From contig CAVUSO010000001.1 in the NCBI GenBank assembly GCA_963744145.1, forward strand, positions 3,808,001-3,872,000: a stretch of 64,000 nt of DNA, read 5' to 3'. A program made the translations under genes and the position numbers. A model generated the notes under the pieces. That model did not search any database. It worked only from the letters and a program-made list of their open reading frames with translations, and was not told where the DNA came from. Source of the DNA: an uncultured cyanobacterium. GTDB taxonomy: Bacteria > Cyanobacteriota > Cyanobacteriia > Cyanobacteriales > CAWUOF01. Shown here piece after piece: positions 56,481 through 64,000 of this stretch. Position 1 is the stretch's first letter. Every line of letters starts with the position of its first letter.

Positions 56481-56599
56481 GAAAGATATATAGGAGTTAC
56501 ACAAGGATTACAAACTATCGGAGGTAGGTTGTATAAATTAGTTCACTGCGATCGATATAACTTTAGTTACTCAAAGATGACTTGGGAGTAGTCACTAGA

Positions 56600-58120
56600 A
56601 TGGCAGACCTAATTGAGCGATTTTCGACTTTTCAAGGAATGGCAGACCTAATTGAGCGATTTTCGACTTTTCAAGAAGTCAATCCCCATCGTCGCCAAGT
56701 GCAGGATTCTAAGCTAAGACAAAATTTGCATTGCTTGCTAGAACAGTATCCAGAACTCAATGATGAAACAGCGTTGCTGAGATATTTCTGCAATGCTGCT
56801 GAGAATAACTCGGATTCATTAGCACGTTGTCATCTACTTGCTTATGTAGATTCTGCTTGCTATTCAGCAGCGATCGCAACTTACCAAATCTTCCGCACAC
56901 CGGATCTCACTTTGGAAGACTATCTGCAAATTGCCAGAGATAAAATTGCTCCCTGTCTTATTCAATTATGCGCTCAGTACGATCCCAGTCAAAGCCAAAT
57001 CACAACTTATGCTTCTCCGTTCCTCCGCAGTGCTATTATGAGCGAACTGCGTTGCCACCAAGAAATAGAAAGGCGGAGTGATTGGTCGCTGTTGCGAAAT
57101 TTCTCGAAGACTAAGCGGAAAAAAGTTTTAGATAAATTTGGAATCAAAGAGCCAAAATTATCTAATTGTTTGCTAATTTGGCAAGGCTTTTCAGAAGTTT
57201 ATGCCCCAGTTAAAGCACGGAGAAATCCGAAATTACCACCGCCAACTGAGAAACAATGGCAGGCGATCGCCCAATTTGGCAACGAACAGCAATTACCGCA
57301 CTCAGTTAAACCCTTCACCGTGCAGGACAGCCAAGAATTGTTAGGAATTTGCGTTAATGCGCTGCGAGAACCTAGTAGAATTAATTTGTATTCACTCAAT
57401 GAAGACAACCGAGATTTAGAACTAGAGATCACTAAAAAATCCCAGCAGCAAGTATGGTACAGAGAACAACAAACGGCTGAATCTGAGCAATACCAACAGG
57501 TGAAAATAGAATTAGCCAGCGCGATCGCCTCCCTCCCTGCTGATGCCCGAAAAATGTTAATCTTAGAACATGGCTTCATCGGATTTAACCAAAGTTACAT
57601 CGGTCAAGAGTTCGGCATCCAGCAATATCAGGTTTCTCGAAATTTAACTGGCTACAAACGCCGTCTCTTAGAAGTTTTGGTGCAGTGGAGTCAAAGACAA
57701 CTAGGTGTTAATTTGAGTTTAGAAACTGTCAAACGCCTATCAATTTATCTCGATGAGTGGCTGATTTGGTATTGCCAAAATACTATTCTGTACAGGTTTT
57801 TGGAAGCCGTTTTGAGGCTGCATCCTGCCCTTAAGTTGGAAATTAAGTTGTTGTATCGCTATTATGGGATGAGTTTACCAGGAAAAGCAGATGAAAGAGC
57901 GATCGAGATCGCCTGGGAATTTAACCTGGCACAAACTGAGTTGCAGGAAAAGTTAATGCAAGTTAAAACAACTTTGCAAGAACAGTTACACCAATGGCTA
58001 CAGCAAACTCTTGCACTCAAACCCTGTTCTCTAAGAGTGATGAATAATTCCTCAGCATTGTTAGTAGAACAGTTTTTAGCCAACGCGCCTTATGCCCTTT
58101 TAATCAGCGAACGGAGGTAA
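56600..58120 (+). CDS. Cyanobacterial sigma-70-like protein of the DUF1822/CHAT-linked type
   Basis: Region-2-like HLLAY..CY..YDPS...TYA...LR; region-4 HTH ML.L.HG..NQ..IGQEFGIQQYQVSR; degenerate second HTH near the C-terminus. Confidence 0.7.
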   Translation: MADLIERFSTFQGMADLIERFSTFQEVNPHRRQVQDSKLRQNLHCLLEQYPELNDETALLRYFCNAAENNSDSLARCHLLAYVDSACYSAAIATYQIFRTPDLTLEDYLQIARDKIAPCLIQLCAQYDPSQSQITTYASPFLRSAIMSELRCHQEIERRSDWSLLRNFSKTKRKKVLDKFGIKEPKLSNCLLIWQGFSEVYAPVKARRNPKLPPPTEKQWQAIAQFGNEQQLPHSVKPFTVQDSQELLGICVNALREPSRINLYSLNEDNRDLELEITKKSQQQVWYREQQTAESEQYQQVKIELASAIASLPADARKMLILEHGFIGFNQSYIGQEFGIQQYQVSRNLTGYKRRLLEVLVQWSQRQLGVNLSLETVKRLSIYLDEWLIWYCQNTILYRFLEAVLRLHPALKLEIKLLYRYYGMSLPGKADERAIEIAWEFNLAQTELQEKLMQVKTTLQEQLHQWLQQTLALKPCSLRVMNNSSALLVEQFLANAPYALLISERR

Positions 58121-59301
58121 TGAAAATGGTATTCAATTTAGAACAATTAAGCCTAGCCTGTCCCCATCATCTCTGGCTAGAGTTTTCGGAAAAAGAACAG
58201 GAAAAAGCTGTTTCTGTAAGACTGGATTACTCCCATGATGCAGCAAGTCATCGCGCTTTCTTAAATCGGCTGACTCTGGCAGTTTTGTTACCTGTATTGC
58301 AAGCAGAATCTGAAGCATTTACCCAAATTACATCCCCGGAAAATATTTGGGAATTTGTGACAGGTTTTGCCATCAGTTTGGGTAAAAATCGCTTGGTAAT
58401 TATTGCAAGTGAAACCATTGATACTGATGAATTTTCTGTGCCTCAAGAATGGGTAGATATTCCTGAATGGGCGGCTGATTATTATTTGGCTGTGCAGGTG
58501 AATTTAGAGGATGGATGGTTGCGGGTGTGGGGGTTTACAACCCATCGAAAACTGAAAAATGAAGGTAGGTATGATCGGGGCGATCGCACCTATTCTCTCA
58601 ATGGAGAAGATCTGTTTGAGCATCTCAATACTTTGTGGGTTTCTCTGAAACTTTGTCAAGGAGAAAAAGCGTTGATTGAACCTTTACCCGTCTTATCTTC
58701 TAACCAAATAGAGATGCTATTGGTAGAATTAGGTAAACCTTCTCTTTATTCCCCACGTTTGAAAATACCTTTTGCACAGTGGGGTGCGCTATTAGCTGCT
58801 GATAATTCAAGGCAAGAATTGTATCAGCGACGGTTGGAAAATGTGCCTAATATTGTGCAATTGGGTAAAAATATTTTCCCTGATTGGTGGCTAATGTTTG
58901 ATGAGTTAGTGCAAGCGTGTAACCTCAATCTTTCCTTTGCTAGAAGTGGAGCGCGATCGGGGGATAATGAAGAGCGTACTCCGGGAATTAGTCGGGGACG
59001 AGTGATTGATTTGGGGATTCAATTGGCGGGTAATTCTATGGCGCTAATTGTGCATTTCACTAAGGAATCAGAGAATAAACATAACATTTTGTTACAGGTA
59101 AATCCGGGTGGGGGTCAAACTTATTTACCGCCAGATGTGGAATTGATTGTATTAGATGATACGGGTGATGTGTTTTTGGAAGCGCGATCGCGCAGTGCTG
59201 ATAATTGGATTCAATTGGAGTTTCGGGGTGAGCCTGGGGAGCGGTTTAGTGTTAAGGTGGCTTTAGGGGATGCTAGTATTATGGAATATTTTGCAATCTA
59301 A
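58120..59301 (+). CDS. DUF1822 family protein
   Basis: Motifs VPQEWVDIPEWAADYYLAVQV, WGFTTH and ARSRSADNWIQLEF.GEPGERFSV; TAATG overlap with the sigma gene. Confidence 0.88.
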   Translation: MKMVFNLEQLSLACPHHLWLEFSEKEQEKAVSVRLDYSHDAASHRAFLNRLTLAVLLPVLQAESEAFTQITSPENIWEFVTGFAISLGKNRLVIIASETIDTDEFSVPQEWVDIPEWAADYYLAVQVNLEDGWLRVWGFTTHRKLKNEGRYDRGDRTYSLNGEDLFEHLNTLWVSLKLCQGEKALIEPLPVLSSNQIEMLLVELGKPSLYSPRLKIPFAQWGALLAADNSRQELYQRRLENVPNIVQLGKNIFPDWWLMFDELVQACNLNLSFARSGARSGDNEERTPGISRGRVIDLGIQLAGNSMALIVHFTKESENKHNILLQVNPGGGQTYLPPDVELIVLDDTGDVFLEARSRSADNWIQLEFRGEPGERFSVKVALGDASIMEYFAI

Positions 59302-59319: not shown

Positions 59320-62319
59320 ATGAGAAAGTTAGTGATGCTGATTTTTGAAGAAAAGGGAGACTTGGAAAGAGTAGGTTTTTCGGTAACGTTACGACTAGGG
59401 GACGAGGGGCAAACTTTGCCTACTCAGCAAACTGGATCTTTACCGTCAAACCCGGAACTGGTTGAGTCTTACAACAGTTGGAAAGAAACTTATGATGGCT
59501 GCTTTATTAGGGTAAATGGTAGTAGATTAGAACAGCCAGCAAAACAAATAACTAACTTCTCAATTCCAGAGGTTGAGATAAAATCTGAGAATTTGAGGCA
59601 ACAATTTAATGACTGGTTACAATCGCAGCAATTGAATAATGTTAGGCAAGAATTAGTTGCCCTAGTTGCCAATTTACAAGAAAATGATGAAGTGCGGTTG
59701 ATTATCCAAACTTCAAATACACAGCTACAGAAACTTCCCTGGCATCTTTGGGATATATTGAGAGGTTGCCCTAAAGCTGAAATTAGTGTCAGTCCGCACA
59801 ATTTCAGTCCGCGGCCCAGTGTTAGAAAAAGAACATCAGCCAAATTTGCTAATAATCAAGTTAATATTTTGGCAATTTTGGGCAATGATAAGGAAATTAA
59901 TGTTGAAGAAGATCGAAGAATATTAAATTCTATTCCGGGTGCTAAAGTTAAGTTTTTAGTTAAACCCGAGCAACGAGACATCGACAATGAACTCAGGGAA
60001 AAGTCTTGGGATATTCTATTTTTTGCGGGACATAGCCGCACGGAGGGAGAAAAAGGAATCATATATATTAATTCGACTGAGAGTTTAACTATCGGTAACT
60101 TAAATTATGCGTTAGAAGAGGCAATTAGAAACGGTTTACAAATAGCAATTTTTAACTCTTGTGATAGTTTAGGGTTAGCTAAAGATTTAGCTGATTTGAA
60201 TCTCCCTCACATGATTATCATGCGAGAACAGGTTCCTGATAAAGTGGCACAGGAATTTTTGAAATATTTTCTGGGTTTTTTTTCACAGGGTCAGTCATTT
60301 TATTTAGCGGTTAAGAAAGCACGGGAAAAATTGCAGAGTTTGGAAAATCAGTTTCCCTGTGCTTCTTGGTTGCCTGTTATCTACCAAAAAAATCCTACTA
60401 AGATACCCCCTACTTGGAAAGAGTTACGGAGAATAGATAAAAAATCAGCTTTTTGTCTGAGCGCGTTATGTTTGGCAGAGGCAGCGGCAGCTTTTCTGGT
60501 ATCGGTAAGTCTTGTCCCATCTCCTGTGAATACTAATCACATTCTGATCTTAGTTTTAGGTGGATTAATCTTTGCCCAATCTCCTCCTGCGATCAAAGGC
60601 AAAAATTTACTAATTATTGCTGTAATTACTTTACCAATTATTTTTTTATGGCGGAGTTTGCAAGGTGGTTTTGGTTTGGAAATTGTGATCGGTATAGCAG
60701 CTTTAGCTGGATTAGGTGTGATCGCGATGGCATTGCATAATGTCAGGATGATTTCCCCATTTTTCAGACGAATTTTCATCGCTTTCAGCCGTCGATTCAT
60801 CCCCTGGATTAGCAACGCCTTGCGGTTTGGAGTTAGATTACAGGTTTTAGTATTGCTGAGCTTGGGCATCGCAATGTTGGATAGTAATCCTCCCTTTAAT
60901 CTTCACTTTAGTTTGGGTGACAAACCCCTTTTTTATAATGGCACGGATGTGACAGCAAAAAAGCTGCTAGATACCGGGGTGTTTGTTTATAATGGCACGG
61001 ATGTGACAGCAAAAAAGCTGCTAGGTATCTGGGAGTTTGCCCTGCTGGGAAATGGCCTGGGACATTATGAATGTGCTAGGGATGCCTTCGACAATTATCT
61101 AAAGCAAAATCCAAATGACCCAGAGGCTTTAATTTATAAGAATAATGCGATCGCCCGTCTTTCTGGTCGTCCACCTCTTCGCATTGCCGTCAGCGTTCCC
61201 ATTGGCAGTAACCCGGACGTTGCTGCTGAGATTTTACGAGGTGTTGCTCAGGCTCAGGCTCAAATTAATAATGATGCAAACGGCATTAATGGTGCCAAGT
61301 TAGAAATCAAACTTGCTGACGATCGCAACAATCGCGCCCTTGCAGCAAGTATCGCGCATACTTTTGTTCATGATCCCCAGGTTCTTGCCGTTATTGGACA
61401 CAATGCAAGTAACGCTTCTCAGGCGGCTGCTCCCATCTATAACAGGAATCACCTGGTGATGATCACTCCCACAAGCTTTGCAAGCGCAGTAACTAATAGC
61501 GACTGGCCTTATATTTTTCAAACTACTCCTACAGCTGAGAAATATACCAAAAGATTAGTCAATTATATTGTCAAAACTGATAATATTAAGAAAGCCGTAT
61601 TTTGTTTTGACTCTAACGCGCAAGATAATAACGATTTCAAAAAGGCGCTCTCTAAATCCTTAATCGAACTTGCTAACACAAGTGAATGCGATGTTAGGTC
61701 ACAATCATTCAATGCGGATGATGCAATTCAGGAAGCTAATGATAGAAATGCACAAGCCTTGATCGTCAATCCTTTTATAGACGAGATTGATAAAACCGCA
61801 AAGCTATTTAATGCCAACACCAATAACGATCCTCCCTTGCATCTGTATGGGTCGTCCACATTCAATACCTTTAAGACCTTAAGTATGGGAGCAGCAATCG
61901 AAAACCTTGTCATTCCAGTCGCATGGTATCCAGATTTTTATACAAAGACTAAGTTTGTTGAGGAGGCCACAAACCTATGGGGAACATCCTCTATCAATTG
62001 GCGTACCGCCATGAGTTATGATGCAGCCGAAGCAATCATTACAGCTTTACTGCAAATCCCATCTAGATCCGATATCAAAGACATTCGATCCGATATCAAA
62101 GAGACTCTATTAAAAAAAGACTTTTCAGTAGAAGGAGCAGAAGGGACAGCTCGACCAGTGAAATTTGATAGCAAAGGTGGCCGCAGCTGCGATCTTCCTA
62201 TTTTATTACTCCAAGTGAAACAGAAAGACCCCTCAAACCCCAAGACAGAATATGGTTTTGTACGGTTGGACGTTCCTGATCCAGAGGATAAATCGACGGT
62301 TGAATGCGATAAAAATTAG
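59320..62319 (+). CDS. CHAT (caspase/HetF-like) protease + TM segments + type-1 (LivJ-like) periplasmic ligand-binding domain
   Basis: CHAT motifs LPWHLW, FFAGHS, FNSCD and PCASWLPV; hydrophobic block; then NDPEALIY.NNA, LRGVAQAQ, LAVIGHNAS and WRTAMSYDA. Confidence 0.88.
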   Translation: MRKLVMLIFEEKGDLERVGFSVTLRLGDEGQTLPTQQTGSLPSNPELVESYNSWKETYDGCFIRVNGSRLEQPAKQITNFSIPEVEIKSENLRQQFNDWLQSQQLNNVRQELVALVANLQENDEVRLIIQTSNTQLQKLPWHLWDILRGCPKAEISVSPHNFSPRPSVRKRTSAKFANNQVNILAILGNDKEINVEEDRRILNSIPGAKVKFLVKPEQRDIDNELREKSWDILFFAGHSRTEGEKGIIYINSTESLTIGNLNYALEEAIRNGLQIAIFNSCDSLGLAKDLADLNLPHMIIMREQVPDKVAQEFLKYFLGFFSQGQSFYLAVKKAREKLQSLENQFPCASWLPVIYQKNPTKIPPTWKELRRIDKKSAFCLSALCLAEAAAAFLVSVSLVPSPVNTNHILILVLGGLIFAQSPPAIKGKNLLIIAVITLPIIFLWRSLQGGFGLEIVIGIAALAGLGVIAMALHNVRMISPFFRRIFIAFSRRFIPWISNALRFGVRLQVLVLLSLGIAMLDSNPPFNLHFSLGDKPLFYNGTDVTAKKLLDTGVFVYNGTDVTAKKLLGIWEFALLGNGLGHYECARDAFDNYLKQNPNDPEALIYKNNAIARLSGRPPLRIAVSVPIGSNPDVAAEILRGVAQAQAQINNDANGINGAKLEIKLADDRNNRALAASIAHTFVHDPQVLAVIGHNASNASQAAAPIYNRNHLVMITPTSFASAVTNSDWPYIFQTTPTAEKYTKRLVNYIVKTDNIKKAVFCFDSNAQDNNDFKKALSKSLIELANTSECDVRSQSFNADDAIQEANDRNAQALIVNPFIDEIDKTAKLFNANTNNDPPLHLYGSSTFNTFKTLSMGAAIENLVIPVAWYPDFYTKTKFVEEATNLWGTSSINWRTAMSYDAAEAIITALLQIPSRSDIKDIRSDIKETLLKKDFSVEGAEGTARPVKFDSKGGRSCDLPILLLQVKQKDPSNPKTEYGFVRLDVPDPEDKSTVECDKN
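60729..60819 (+). mobile_element. 91-bp MITE-like element, left copy (translated in frame within the CHAT gene)
   Basis: Has its own imperfect TIRs GGCATTGCATAAT...ATTAGCAACGCC; 76/91 identical to the reverse complement of 62269-62359 by hand alignment. Confidence 0.75.
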
Positions 62320-62359
62320 TCCGAAAAATTGGAAAATCATACTGCCATTATGCAACGCC
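62269..62359 (-). mobile_element. 91-bp MITE-like element, right copy (inverted); supplies the CHAT stop codon
   Basis: Reverse complement of 60729-60819, ending ...CATTATGCAACGCC. Confidence 0.75.
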
Positions 62360-62998
62360 CTATTTCGACGTATTTACAATTCTCTGTCTCAGCAAAATAA
62401 AACTACAGTTTTAATCTTATCTTTATTAATTCCAGCAGGGTTTTGCATCTGGTGGTTTATGCCGCCTGATAGTTGGTGGTTTATGTCGCCTGATAGTTTT
62501 GCGAAAGTGTCCAATGTTCCCTCCGGATCTTTTTTTTATGGAGGAAGTACCGCTTGGGCACCAATTAGTCACGTTGTAAATTCTGTGATTGAAAATATAT
62601 GGCCTCAGTTTAAATTGAGTTATAAACAACCTAATACTGACGCTCCTGAATCAAGTACTGGGATTAAAATGCTTTTAGATAATCAGTTAGCATTTTCTCA
62701 GTCTTCTCGCCCTGTGAAAGATGAAGAATATAAAGCTGCTAAACACAAGGTATTTACCCTCAAAGAAGTAACGATCACTATTGATGGAATAGCGTTTATA
62801 GTTAAACCGAATTTAAATATTACTGGTTTAAATTTAGCTCAGATTAAAGATATTTATACTGGCAAAATTACCAACTGGAGTCAAGTCGGCGGTCCGAACC
62901 AAACAATTATCCCTTACTCTCTTCATAGTGGAAGTGAAACCATAGATTTTTTGATAGAAAACATTTTAAAAAACGAGAAGCTGGGCGAGCAGGTTTGA
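62356..62998 (+). pseudogene. Orphaned, truncated TM + PstS-type substrate-binding domain; probable former C-terminus of the CHAT gene
   Basis: Motifs VPSG.F.YGGST.WAP, S.TGI.MLL..QL.FSQSSRP and IYTGKITNW..VGGP; the second lobe is missing and there is no convincing own start. Confidence 0.75.
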
Positions 62999-63018
62999 TC
63001 GCTTAACATGAAACAAAA

Positions 63019-63309
63019 ATAAGCGCATCTTTTCTGGAACTTTCTAACTACCAAGTAGAAGCTTCAACACAATAAGAAGCTATCGAAAAATTGAACGAAA
63101 TCTTACATATTCGTTTGGAAAAACTAGAGATTATTCCAGTAGAAATTGAATGGCAACCCGCTCAAAAACCGGAGAATCCTTGGGTAAAATTTGCAGGCGT
63201 TTTTCAAGACAATCCCGACTTCACTGAGATTGCAGAAAGTCTTAGAAAAGAGCGTTTAGCTAACGATGATGCAATTAGCGATCGCCACTTTCACGCCCAA
63301 ATAATATAA
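63019..63309 (+). pseudogene. HicB-like small protein remnant
   Basis: Reads ASFLELSNYQVEASTQ*EAIEKL...NPWVKFAGVF, with an in-frame TAA at 63073-63075 and no N-terminus. Confidence 0.5.
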
Positions 63310-63318
63310 GGAAATGAA

Positions 63319-64000
63319 TTAAATTGACAAAAGTTCAAGAGAACGCAAAAATTGGCAAATCTGCCTCGCCACATCGATCGCAACCGCCCGCTGTGCCTCG
63401 CGTGTACCCGAACCCAAATGCGGACTCAAATGCAACTTATTACTCCTCCTAGCAAACTCTATCAAAGGTGAATCCTTTGGTAAAGGTTCATTAACAAAAA
63501 CATCCAAAGCAGCACCCGCAATTCGATTAGATTCCAACGCCTTCAACAAATCTGCCTCATTCACAATTCCACCGCGAGCACAATTGATAATAAAAGCAGT
63601 TGGTTTCATCGTATCTATAGCTGCTGCATTAATTAAATTCCTCGTTTCCTCTGTCAAAGGAATGTGTAAAGTAATAATATCAGATTTTTTCAGCAGTTCA
63701 TCTAAACTCGATAAAGTATAACCCCTTTCGCTAGCTAAATTCGCTACCTTTTCAGGATTACGATTGTAAGCGATAATCTCCATTCCAAACGCTTGCGCTC
63801 TTTCTGCCACCTTTTGACCGATATTGCCTAACCCAATAATTCCCAGGGTTTTTCCATAAAGTTCTGTTCCCCATGAACTGCGAGGACCATTCCAGTTTCC
63901 ATTTAATAGTTCTTCTTGTGGCGCGATAATAGGTCGAGCTAAATCTAACATCAGACAGAAAACTAATTCAGCCGTAGCAATACCATTAGCATTAGAATTA
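63319..64000 (-). CDS. D-isomer 2-hydroxyacid/phosphoglycerate dehydrogenase-like domain; 5' part lies outside the window
   Basis: Motifs GKTLGIIGLGNIG, LHIPLT, INCARGGIV, AALDVF..EP and SPHLGSGT.EAQ; no ACT tail. Confidence 0.85.
   Translation of the reverse strand, partial: NSNANGIATAELVFCLMLDLARPIIAPQEELLNGNWNGPRSSWGTELYGKTLGIIGLGNIGQKVAERAQAFGMEIIAYNRNPEKVANLASERGYTLSSLDELLKKSDIITLHIPLTEETRNLINAAAIDTMKPTAFIINCARGGIVNEADLLKALESNRIAGAALDVFVNEPLPKDSPLIEFARRSNKLHLSPHLGSGTREAQRAVAIDVARQICQFLRSLELLSI

Follow-up and report, generated by a model that had tools for sequence, protein, structure and literature searches.

The C-terminal sensors of CHAT/caspase receptors in filamentous cyanobacteria are known to be swapped, while the mode of exchange has not been described. 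The closest described layout is that of the EACC2-caspase systems, in which a constant N-terminal domain and a caspase are followed by a highly variable C-terminus (Kaur, Burroughs, Iyer and Aravind 2021, eLife, PMC8195603). The C-termini reported there comprise CHASE2, small-molecule binders, trypsin and multi-transmembrane modules, and genes for an ECF sigma factor as well as for a DUF1822 protein are found as neighbours; the passages devoted to these systems cover the C-terminal variability and give no mechanism for it. In this work, a gene of this kind was analysed in a 64-kb stretch of contig CAVUSO010000001.1 from an uncultured cyanobacterium, the whole of which is called the window. All three genes (ECF sigma, DUF1822, CHAT) are present in the window in the order described for the EACC2-caspase layout, and the locus is, judged by its gene content, most probably a three-gene ECF-sigma/DUF1822/CHAT-caspase system with the notoriously variable C-terminal sensor. 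[quoted passage not shown] C-terminal variability as such is already known; new is the position of MITE copies at both seams. The gene can be shown by phylogeny to be a chimera, copies of a mobile element lie exactly at its two seams, and another sensor, which is truncated, lies next to it; the locus is thereby a concrete case on which domain shuffling with the help of transposable elements can be tested in bacteria. If the copies are incidental, it holds an ordinary pair of old MITE insertions.

The copies themselves compare most closely with the 91-bp IS1-family MITEs found on plasmids and chromosomes of Nostocales (Nostoc, Tolypothrix, Calothrix, Aulosira, Brasilonema). Length and 8-nt termini are the same, the sequences can be aligned end to end, and in both groups the left end is the left inverted repeat (IRL) of a 755-bp IS1-family IS. 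The window copies differ from this family in sequence (66–71% identity) and in lacking the 8-bp A+T-rich target duplication that 29 of 46 relatives have kept. Cyanobacterial MITEs sharing terminal inverted repeats (TIRs) with an IS are described in the account of Nezha (PMC3184786), and MITEs that lie in frame within genes and leave them open are described, in the sections concerned, for the Rickettsia palindromic elements and the MITEs of Anabaena PCC 7120 that are fused to open reading frames (ORFs) (PMC10969869, PMC3184786). Like these, the left window copy is fused in frame in an open gene; unlike them, its peptide lies at the seam of a chimera, whose ORF is terminated within another copy.

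MITE-bounded composites have been reported as a pair of 439-bp MITEs around an integron of Acinetobacter and as TIME-COMPs (PMC3934969, PMC13367494). There, as in the window, two non-autonomous copies bracket a cargo; in the parts of these reports that describe the composites, the cargo consists of whole genes and movement is shown by target duplication, whereas the window has part of a gene, no duplication and no second instance. In Thiohalocapsa PB-PSB1, sections of a preprint on diversity-generating retroelement loci describe sensor genes of conflict systems whose C-terminal regions had been copied and joined by recombination to other N-terminal domains; IS and MITE-like repeats occur around these recombined sensor genes (10.1101/2023.09.22.558884). 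These loci, as presented in those sections, differ in phylum, elements and domains, and have repeat arrays degrading components rather than a pair bordering one module; the preprint may nevertheless serve as a precedent for repeats at recombined sensors and was counted in favour of reading the window copies as scars of a fusion. A full-text literature search on MITEs and domain shuffling in prokaryotes found no description of a MITE-bounded protein module.

Chimeric origin of the receptor

The receptor ORF was delineated from the ORF list, Pfam, an alignment to seven CHAT-LivJ homologues and discordant trees. It encodes, in this order, a constant N-terminal domain, the CHAT protease, a block of four transmembrane (TM) helices, a MITE-coded loop, a further TM helix, a TPR-like linker, a LivJ-type (Peripla_BP_6) domain and a MITE-coded tail. 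Pfam places CHAT at residues 111–350 (E 8e-12; 45.6 bits, cutoff 24) and Peripla_BP_6 at residues 620–927 (E 1.4e-26). The constant N-terminal domain and the caspase-like protease (residues 1–369, 59320..60426, +) were delimited by homologue identity and by their clade in the CHAT tree. In the alignment with the seven homologues, the columns of the His/Cys dyad (H238 and C281) are invariant and about 100 residues N-terminal to CHAT are conserved; Pfam and NCBIfam as searched contain no profile for EACC2. After about four hydrophobic helices (residues ~376–470, 60430..60728, +; Kyte–Doolittle scan) and the left MITE copy follows the sensor module (60820..62268, +; 1449 nt or 483 codons), which was recognised by Pfam, by identity to the protein P0129 and by its place in the LivJ tree, and which contains the TM helix, the TPR-like linker and the Peripla_BP_6/ANF_receptor domain up to its natural C-terminus. 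Against NF011933, the curated family for LivJ as a branched-chain amino-acid ABC substrate-binding protein, the receptor scored 58.6 bits (cutoff 477) and missed the threshold for a transporter component; the LivJ-type domain shares the Peripla_BP_6 fold family and would be employed here as a sensor domain.

The receptor protein forms a singleton cluster, and its two halves have different relatives. For the CHAT half (residues 1–369), the best relatives among the matches listed are P0004–P0013, which are 63–69% identical and have unrelated C-termini; apart from the window's own protein, no match among the 120 listed carries a LivJ or a PstS domain. With the LivJ half, many proteins were matched in which LivJ is combined with CHAT, a caspase or a kinase, and the identity was 53% at best. 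P0129 is 33.5% identical to the receptor in the CHAT half and 52.8% identical over 432 aa in the LivJ half.

A CHAT tree calculated with FastTree (95 rows, which include 40 of the 119 CHAT-only proteins and leave out those with fewer than 250 query residues) placed the window protein in a clade with ten proteins of other architecture, P0004–P0013 among them, at a support of 99, and the other 40 CHAT-LivJ rows fell elsewhere. The same clade was recovered with IQ-TREE in quick mode on 43 rows chosen by hand. In the LivJ tree (120 rows), the window protein formed a clade with P0129 and P0130, likewise at 99. An approximately unbiased (AU) test rejected the grouping of the window's CHAT part with P0129, P0130, P0194 and P0135 (p 0.0005, log-likelihood difference 40.9); this group was named after the FastTree trees had been seen. 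As far as sequence phylogeny can tell, the receptor gene is hence shown to be a chimera, the protease half of which belongs to one lineage and the TM-TPR-LivJ half to a distant CHAT-LivJ lineage. A foreign origin of the sensor, implied by the sensor-domain swap proposed in an earlier note on this DNA, is thereby supported by the trees and the AU test.

Sensor exchange appears to be recurrent in the CHAT family. When sensor labels were mapped on the CHAT tree, PstS required four changes and LivJ five, in support of a repeated swapping of LivJ and PstS modules. A phmmer census of 395 stored proteins counted 44 with CHAT and LivJ (the window protein included), 16 with CHAT and PstS, and one with LivJ and PstS. 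Fusions of CHAT to LivJ that are free of the repeat segment are common: there are 43 others in the stored set, and all seven homologues aligned over their whole length have one TM helix and are devoid of the four-TM block, the MITE-coded segment and the helix that follows it. Repeat-free CHAT-LivJ homologues had been named in the earlier note as a finding that would tell against its own model.

At the position of the four-TM block, one TM helix is present in 36 of the 43 other CHAT-LivJ proteins and in 15 of the 16 CHAT-PstS proteins. A phmmer search with the block (60430–60728) against the 395 stored proteins matched only the protein from which it came. Its derivation from a CHASE2 domain minus the periplasmic part was considered and rejected, as BLASTP to two CHAT-CHASE2 proteins returned the CHAT end and weak hydrophobic matches only. 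Base composition and GC content at third codon positions differ little between the parts of the receptor and are non-diagnostic.

The inverted 91-bp pair and its relatives

A repeat search gave two arms at 60729–60817 and 62271–62359 (89 nt, 84% complementary), and a direct count over the full copies, 60729–60819 and 62269–62359, found 76 of 91 positions identical, which bears out the inverted pair reported in the earlier note. Its further statements that the copies bracket one complete sensor module (TM-TPR-LivJ), and that the ORF is open through the left copy and stops inside the right one, also held. The left copy (60729..60819, +) has its IS-type left end at 60729 and is translated in frame over 30 codons into an Arg-rich loop between helices; the MITE would thus have been retained, as a linker that is translated, within a receptor of 999 aa that looks intact. 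The right copy (62269..62359, −), identified by the repeat search and by its match to the IRL of the IS, is inverted, with its IS-type left end at 62359. It provides the last 16 codons of the receptor ORF and the TAG stop (62317–62319), and the left copy is without a stop at the corresponding place and frame. The left copy lies inside the sole interval able to hold the fusion junction (60426 to ~60900), and the right copy starts 2–12 residues before the C-terminal ends of the homologues in the seven-homologue alignment. Searching the window by blastn-short with both copies revealed no third copy, the best other matches being 15 nt or shorter.

Each copy had been credited with imperfect TIRs of its own. 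This is borne out in part: inverted repeats are formed by the termini (8 nt) and by a GGATGA block, but the single strands fold no better than shuffled sequences (z −0.99 and +1.52). The longest run identical in both copies is 10 nt, and the on/off switch suggested in the earlier note, with the module inverting by homologous recombination, is therefore unlikely. The 15 differences between the copies were polarised on 25 ungapped copies of the sister subfamily described below, with the result that three derived changes were assigned to the left (coding) copy and ten to the right copy, two being ambiguous. This asymmetric decay would fit a translated, constrained left copy and is no proof of it. 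Selection of the MITE for open frames was considered and gave no clear signal, with three and two of six frames open in the window copies and 0–2 in eight plasmid copies.

The nature of the unit is indicated by its ends. The outer 23 nt of the right copy agree at 23 of 23 positions, and those of the left copy at 20 of 23, with the IRL of an IS on a plasmid of Calothrix sp. 336/3 (L010, 1507–2261). This IS is 755 bp long, contains a coding sequence annotated as IS1 family transposase and is flanked by the 8-bp target duplication GAAAATCT; a second 755-bp IS of the same kind, with the duplication CAATTGTT, is present on a plasmid of Nostoc sp. C057. Both outer ends of the window pair are IS-type left ends and face outwards. 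Owing to the terminal match to the 755-bp IS, we regard the 91-bp unit as a genuine MITE with IS1-family ends, short and with no transposase apparently encoded. An IS1-family transposase was not found in the window by tblastx.

Plasmids searched by blastn with both copies yielded one weak match, in Brasilonema, and one IS end. Over its full length, the Brasilonema copy can be aligned with either window copy, and its 8-nt termini are the same as theirs. The 91-bp family of this copy was found in 36 plasmid records, with a coverage of 80% or more in 17, and the last 25 nt of its unit recur at sites annotated as IS1 family transposase. In species-representative genomes, a family-wide internal pattern scan gave 46 loci, nearly all in Nostocales; all 46 belong to the sister subfamily and share at most 65 of 91 positions with a window copy. 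The left-end pattern common to both window copies had no match in these genomes, a collection that does not contain the source genome. A profile of the MITE peptide, searched against 5.8 billion proteins ('longer' lengths only), gave seven matches among 51 candidates and found the window type in its own protein only, which is weak evidence. Both known window-type copies thus lie within 1.6 kb, with none elsewhere in the 64 kb, and the window copies seem to form a subfamily of their own among the IS1-family MITEs of Nostocales. On the model of the earlier note the unit should occur elsewhere, and the same cassette was to be looked for in other CHAT or kinase genes. What occurs elsewhere is the sister subfamily at 66–71% identity; neither the window type nor another instance of the cassette was found in the plasmids, the species-representative genomes or the protein profile search.

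Several copies of the sister subfamily lie in or next to genes. In a contig of a Nostochopsis sp. metagenome-assembled genome (MAG), a copy with the duplication AATAAAGA (L011, 2457–2547) is inserted in frame (99 nt) in a gene for an NAD-dependent epimerase/dehydratase, which stays open despite the MITE and is annotated as a normal protein of 353 aa (P0390). A copy with the 9-nt duplication GAAGATCCG in a MAG contig of Nostoc indistinguendum (L037) splits a long ORF into frames of 587 aa and 322 aa. A variant starting with AGCATTGG was found in six records (L004, L014, L036, L046, L053 and L056) from different Nostoc and Chlorogloeopsis genomes, with the same flanks and the same duplication GAATTTTA; in L004 it adjoins the TrbI/VirB10 gene of a conjugative plasmid. 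This six-record variant seems to go back to a single old insertion that was carried along on a common backbone of plasmids.

The ends of the element are defined by the terminal repeat of the eight plasmid copies, the 46 genome copies and the two full IS copies. With these ends, the flanks in the window are identical at 3 of 8 positions for the left copy, 2 of 8 for the right copy and 1 of 8 for the pair as a composite. An exact duplication of at least 7 nt is present at 29 of the 46 sister loci, 24 of these duplications being 8 nt long; 16 loci are without an exact duplication, two of which still match at 7 of 8 flank bases, and of the plasmid copies aligned with their flanks, seven of eight showed a duplication by eye. 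In 25 copies with flanks matching at 7 of 8 positions or more, the duplication averages 80% A+T. The HIP1 core (GATCG or CGATC) occurred in 0 of the 29 sister-subfamily duplications; a HIP1 site (GCGATCGC) as the insertion target, as put forward in the earlier note, is at odds with this and with the A+T-rich targets of the family. A second copy within 2.5 kb was not found at any of the 46 sister loci.

Joining 60728 to 62356, on which the HIP1 proposal was built, indeed produces GCGATCGC and leaves the frame open into the neighbouring PstS-type ORF; bases 62356–62359, however, still belong to the element, as the final 4 nt (CGCC) of its terminal repeat, and the rebuilt HIP1 makes use of them. 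The window contains 62 HIP1 sites in 64 kb, so that finding a HIP1-like string close to any given site is no rarity. Strict excision of the pair at the family-defined outer ends is out of frame; removal of the pair together with a notional 8-nt duplication (1639 nt) leads from the CHAT frame into the PstS frame; and strict excision of the right copy alone is in frame, the PstS-type ORF already being in frame through that copy. Given 91 + 8 = 99 nt and a spacer of 1449 nt, in-frame reconstructions are cheap at this locus and carry little weight.

The PstS-type fragment and the origin of the seams

The PstS-type ORF (62252..62998, +; 248 aa), identified from the ORF list and Pfam, starts with an ATG 17 nt before the right copy, runs for five codons and then reads through the MITE in a frame other than that of the receptor. 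Beyond the copy, the encoded protein continues with a basic stretch and a single TM helix and ends in a PBP_like_2 domain of which the first half is present (profile positions 11–148 of 267 only); the PstS model TIGR02136 scored 94.3 bits against a cutoff of 206.6. Using five PstS-type relatives as tblastn queries, nothing of the second PBP_like_2 half was found beyond 62995 in the window. The PstS-type module next to the receptor is truncated at both ends.

At E ≤ 0.001, the fragment has 3947 relatives, of which 150 were listed and 47 of these, mostly the longer ones, scanned for domains. CHAT with PBP_like_2 was found in 11 of the 47, the rest being kinase, caspase, AAA_35, FHA and TPR fusions or stand-alone proteins. 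The CHAT-TM-PstS architecture, which the earlier note had taken as the ancestral state, thus exists (11 of 47 scanned relatives, 16 of 395 stored proteins), but an orthologous empty allele was not present in the databases searched, where the receptor is a singleton cluster and the best CHAT relative is 69% identical. Among the matches listed, the closest relative of the fragment is P0241 (56% identity), a stand-alone protein with an N-terminal anchor; P0244, P0332 and P0334 are of the same type, and residue 1 of P0244 aligns at window position 62384. The fragment keeps 213 open codons. As the relatives include stand-alone proteins and the CHAT-PstS proteins have one TM helix, not five, the fragment could equally be the old module of this gene, the module of a neighbouring receptor or a small anchored protein.

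One PstS relative, P0297 (1039 aa), is a Ser/Thr kinase with a LivJ-type and a PstS-type domain in tandem and no TM helix between them, which implies that both sensor types can coexist in one receptor. An ancestor of this tandem kind was rejected for the window, where a TM helix separates the two domains, although excision of the right copy would be in frame.

We favour, at a probability of about 0.4, the explanation that the MITE copies had a part in the fusion and are scars left by a rearrangement at its joining points. They would mark where a rearrangement broke and rejoined the DNA, fusing the sensor module to the protease. IS1 promotes adjacent deletions and inversions, and the fusion may have been a transposase-driven adjacent deletion or fusion, as known for IS1, or else a recombination between MITE copies in neighbouring paralogous receptor genes. 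Neither route involves a clean cut-and-paste insertion of a composite, which would be why both copies and the pair are without a target duplication. The left copy would then have been kept under coding constraint as a 30-residue linker while the right copy decayed, and the PstS piece would be a remnant of an adjacent, or possibly former, sensor gene. Support for this reading comes from the position of both known window-type copies at the two ends of a foreign module, from the missing footprints (3/8, 2/8 and 1/8) and from the unequal decay (three against ten derived changes). Several points weigh against it. A direct trace of deletion or recombination is absent, the argument being drawn from position and missing duplications. 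Exact duplications are missing from 16 of 46 sister copies; such an absence is therefore nothing exceptional, and a pair of old, independent insertions could give the same picture. Insertions are tolerated only in linkers and C-termini, and selection alone would therefore put surviving copies at domain borders. By our own reading of the flanks, those of the left copy match at 5 of 7 positions when shifted by 1 nt; together with the frame-keeping 99 nt, as in the Nostochopsis epimerase, this means that the left copy could be a plain insertion. Finally, the outgroup used for polarising the differences between the copies is a different subfamily, and at position 19 the IS sides with the right copy.

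Independent, incidental insertion of the two MITEs is nearly as likely as their being fusion scars. Under this alternative the chimera was formed earlier by unrelated recombination, and the MITEs were inserted later, independently or by local hopping, the left one in frame into the juxtamembrane linker and the right one at the 3' end of the gene or in the first codons of a stand-alone anchored PstS-like gene, with the 8-bp duplications of both since decayed. The frame-preserving 99 nt, the in-frame copy in the normally annotated epimerase (L011, P0390), the 5/7 left flanks at a 1-nt offset and the sister copies devoid of an exact duplication are all in its favour, as are the own ATG of the PstS-type ORF, its frame through the right copy and the stand-alone anchored proteins among its nearest relatives (P0241 at 56%, P0244 from residue 1). 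What speaks against it is that the foreign module has exactly at its two ends, and within 1.6 kb, a pair of copies from a subfamily that was not found at any other place; moreover, the right-copy flanks agree at only 2 of 8 positions, the targets in the window are unlike the A+T-rich 8-mers preferred by the family, and upon removal of the left copy with 8 nt two helices would abut with almost no loop.

The model of the earlier note, in which the inverted MITEs moved together with the TM-LivJ module, by a single transposition, into that part of an ancestral CHAT-TM-PstS gene which codes for the loop, replacing the sensor and orphaning the PstS module, is unlikely. The two outward-facing IS-type left ends would be workable for a transposase, MITE-bounded composites are known elsewhere from the reports in question (PMC3934969, PMC13367494, PMC10969869), CHAT-PstS proteins exist, the resulting membrane topology would be consistent, and removal of a 1639-nt insert joins CHAT to the PstS frame, a one-in-three coincidence. 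One-step transposition should, however, have left a flanking duplication, and the composite flanks agree at 1 of 8 positions, against an exact duplication of at least 7 nt in 29 of 46 relatives. The out-of-frame strict excision, the HIP1 site rebuilt with the element's last 4 nt, the 0 of 29 family duplications with a HIP1 core, the 0 of 46 sister loci with a second copy within 2.5 kb and the failure to find the cassette or the subfamily elsewhere speak against it as well. So does the single TM helix, instead of five, in 15 of 16 CHAT-PstS proteins, and the PstS fragment has kept its 213 open codons although the right copy has about 11% derived change. Nothing shows that the sensor module with a MITE at both ends jumped as a single mobile cassette.

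A replicative inversion, in which a MITE transposed intramolecularly to a nearby site, gave rise to an inverted duplicate of itself and flipped the intervening segment, bringing the LivJ module from the opposite strand behind CHAT, is very improbable. Its geometry fits, with inverted copies that each have one old and one new junction, and the copies are each other's only close relatives; yet the inverted duplication it predicts at one inner and one outer flank fails, the pairings being 0 of 8 and 2 of 8. By our own reading of the flanks, inversion, and likewise recombination between two copies inserted independently, were rejected on the same pairings and for want of swapped duplications.

A broader idea, which we hold to be improbable, is that pairs of IS1-family MITEs are portable borders, with their ends facing outwards, by which TM-plus-ligand-binding cassettes move or recombine between the juxtamembrane linkers of CHAT/caspase, kinase and other receptors. 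If it were true, the open frames of the MITE and its 99-nt footprint would make the seams translatable, there would be a mechanism by which conflict-type systems of multicellular cyanobacteria come to have hypervariable C-termini, and the window would display a swap in which the displaced PstS module has stayed on as a neighbour.

Neighbouring genes and minor features

The sigma and DUF1822 genes are directly upstream of the CHAT gene on the same (+) strand. The first gene of the three-gene system (56582..58120) encodes a sigma-70/ECF-type sigma factor of 512 aa, which matched the NCBIfam model TIGR02937 (sigma70-ECF) with an E-value of 7e-14 and 51.7 bits (cutoff 42.9) and gave no Pfam match at 0.01. 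It is followed by the gene for the DUF1822 protein (58120..59301; 393 aa), which covers Pfam PF08852 at profile positions 1–369 of 370 (E 4e-85). A scan of 60500–63400 for promoters and terminators stayed at background level, and directly after the truncated PstS fragment lies an ORF of 72 aa (63091–63309) with no match in NCBIfam.

Three in-frame tandem duplications were observed at the locus. One of 54 bp (60929–61036; 18 codons, copies 91% identical) is located in the TPR-like linker before the LivJ domain and corresponds to a gap in all seven aligned homologues, one of 21 bp (62066–62107) is near the end of the LivJ domain, and one of 24 bp (62450–62497) belongs to the PstS fragment, where it directly follows the TM helix. 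Three such slippage-type duplications inside 1.6 kb are unusual.

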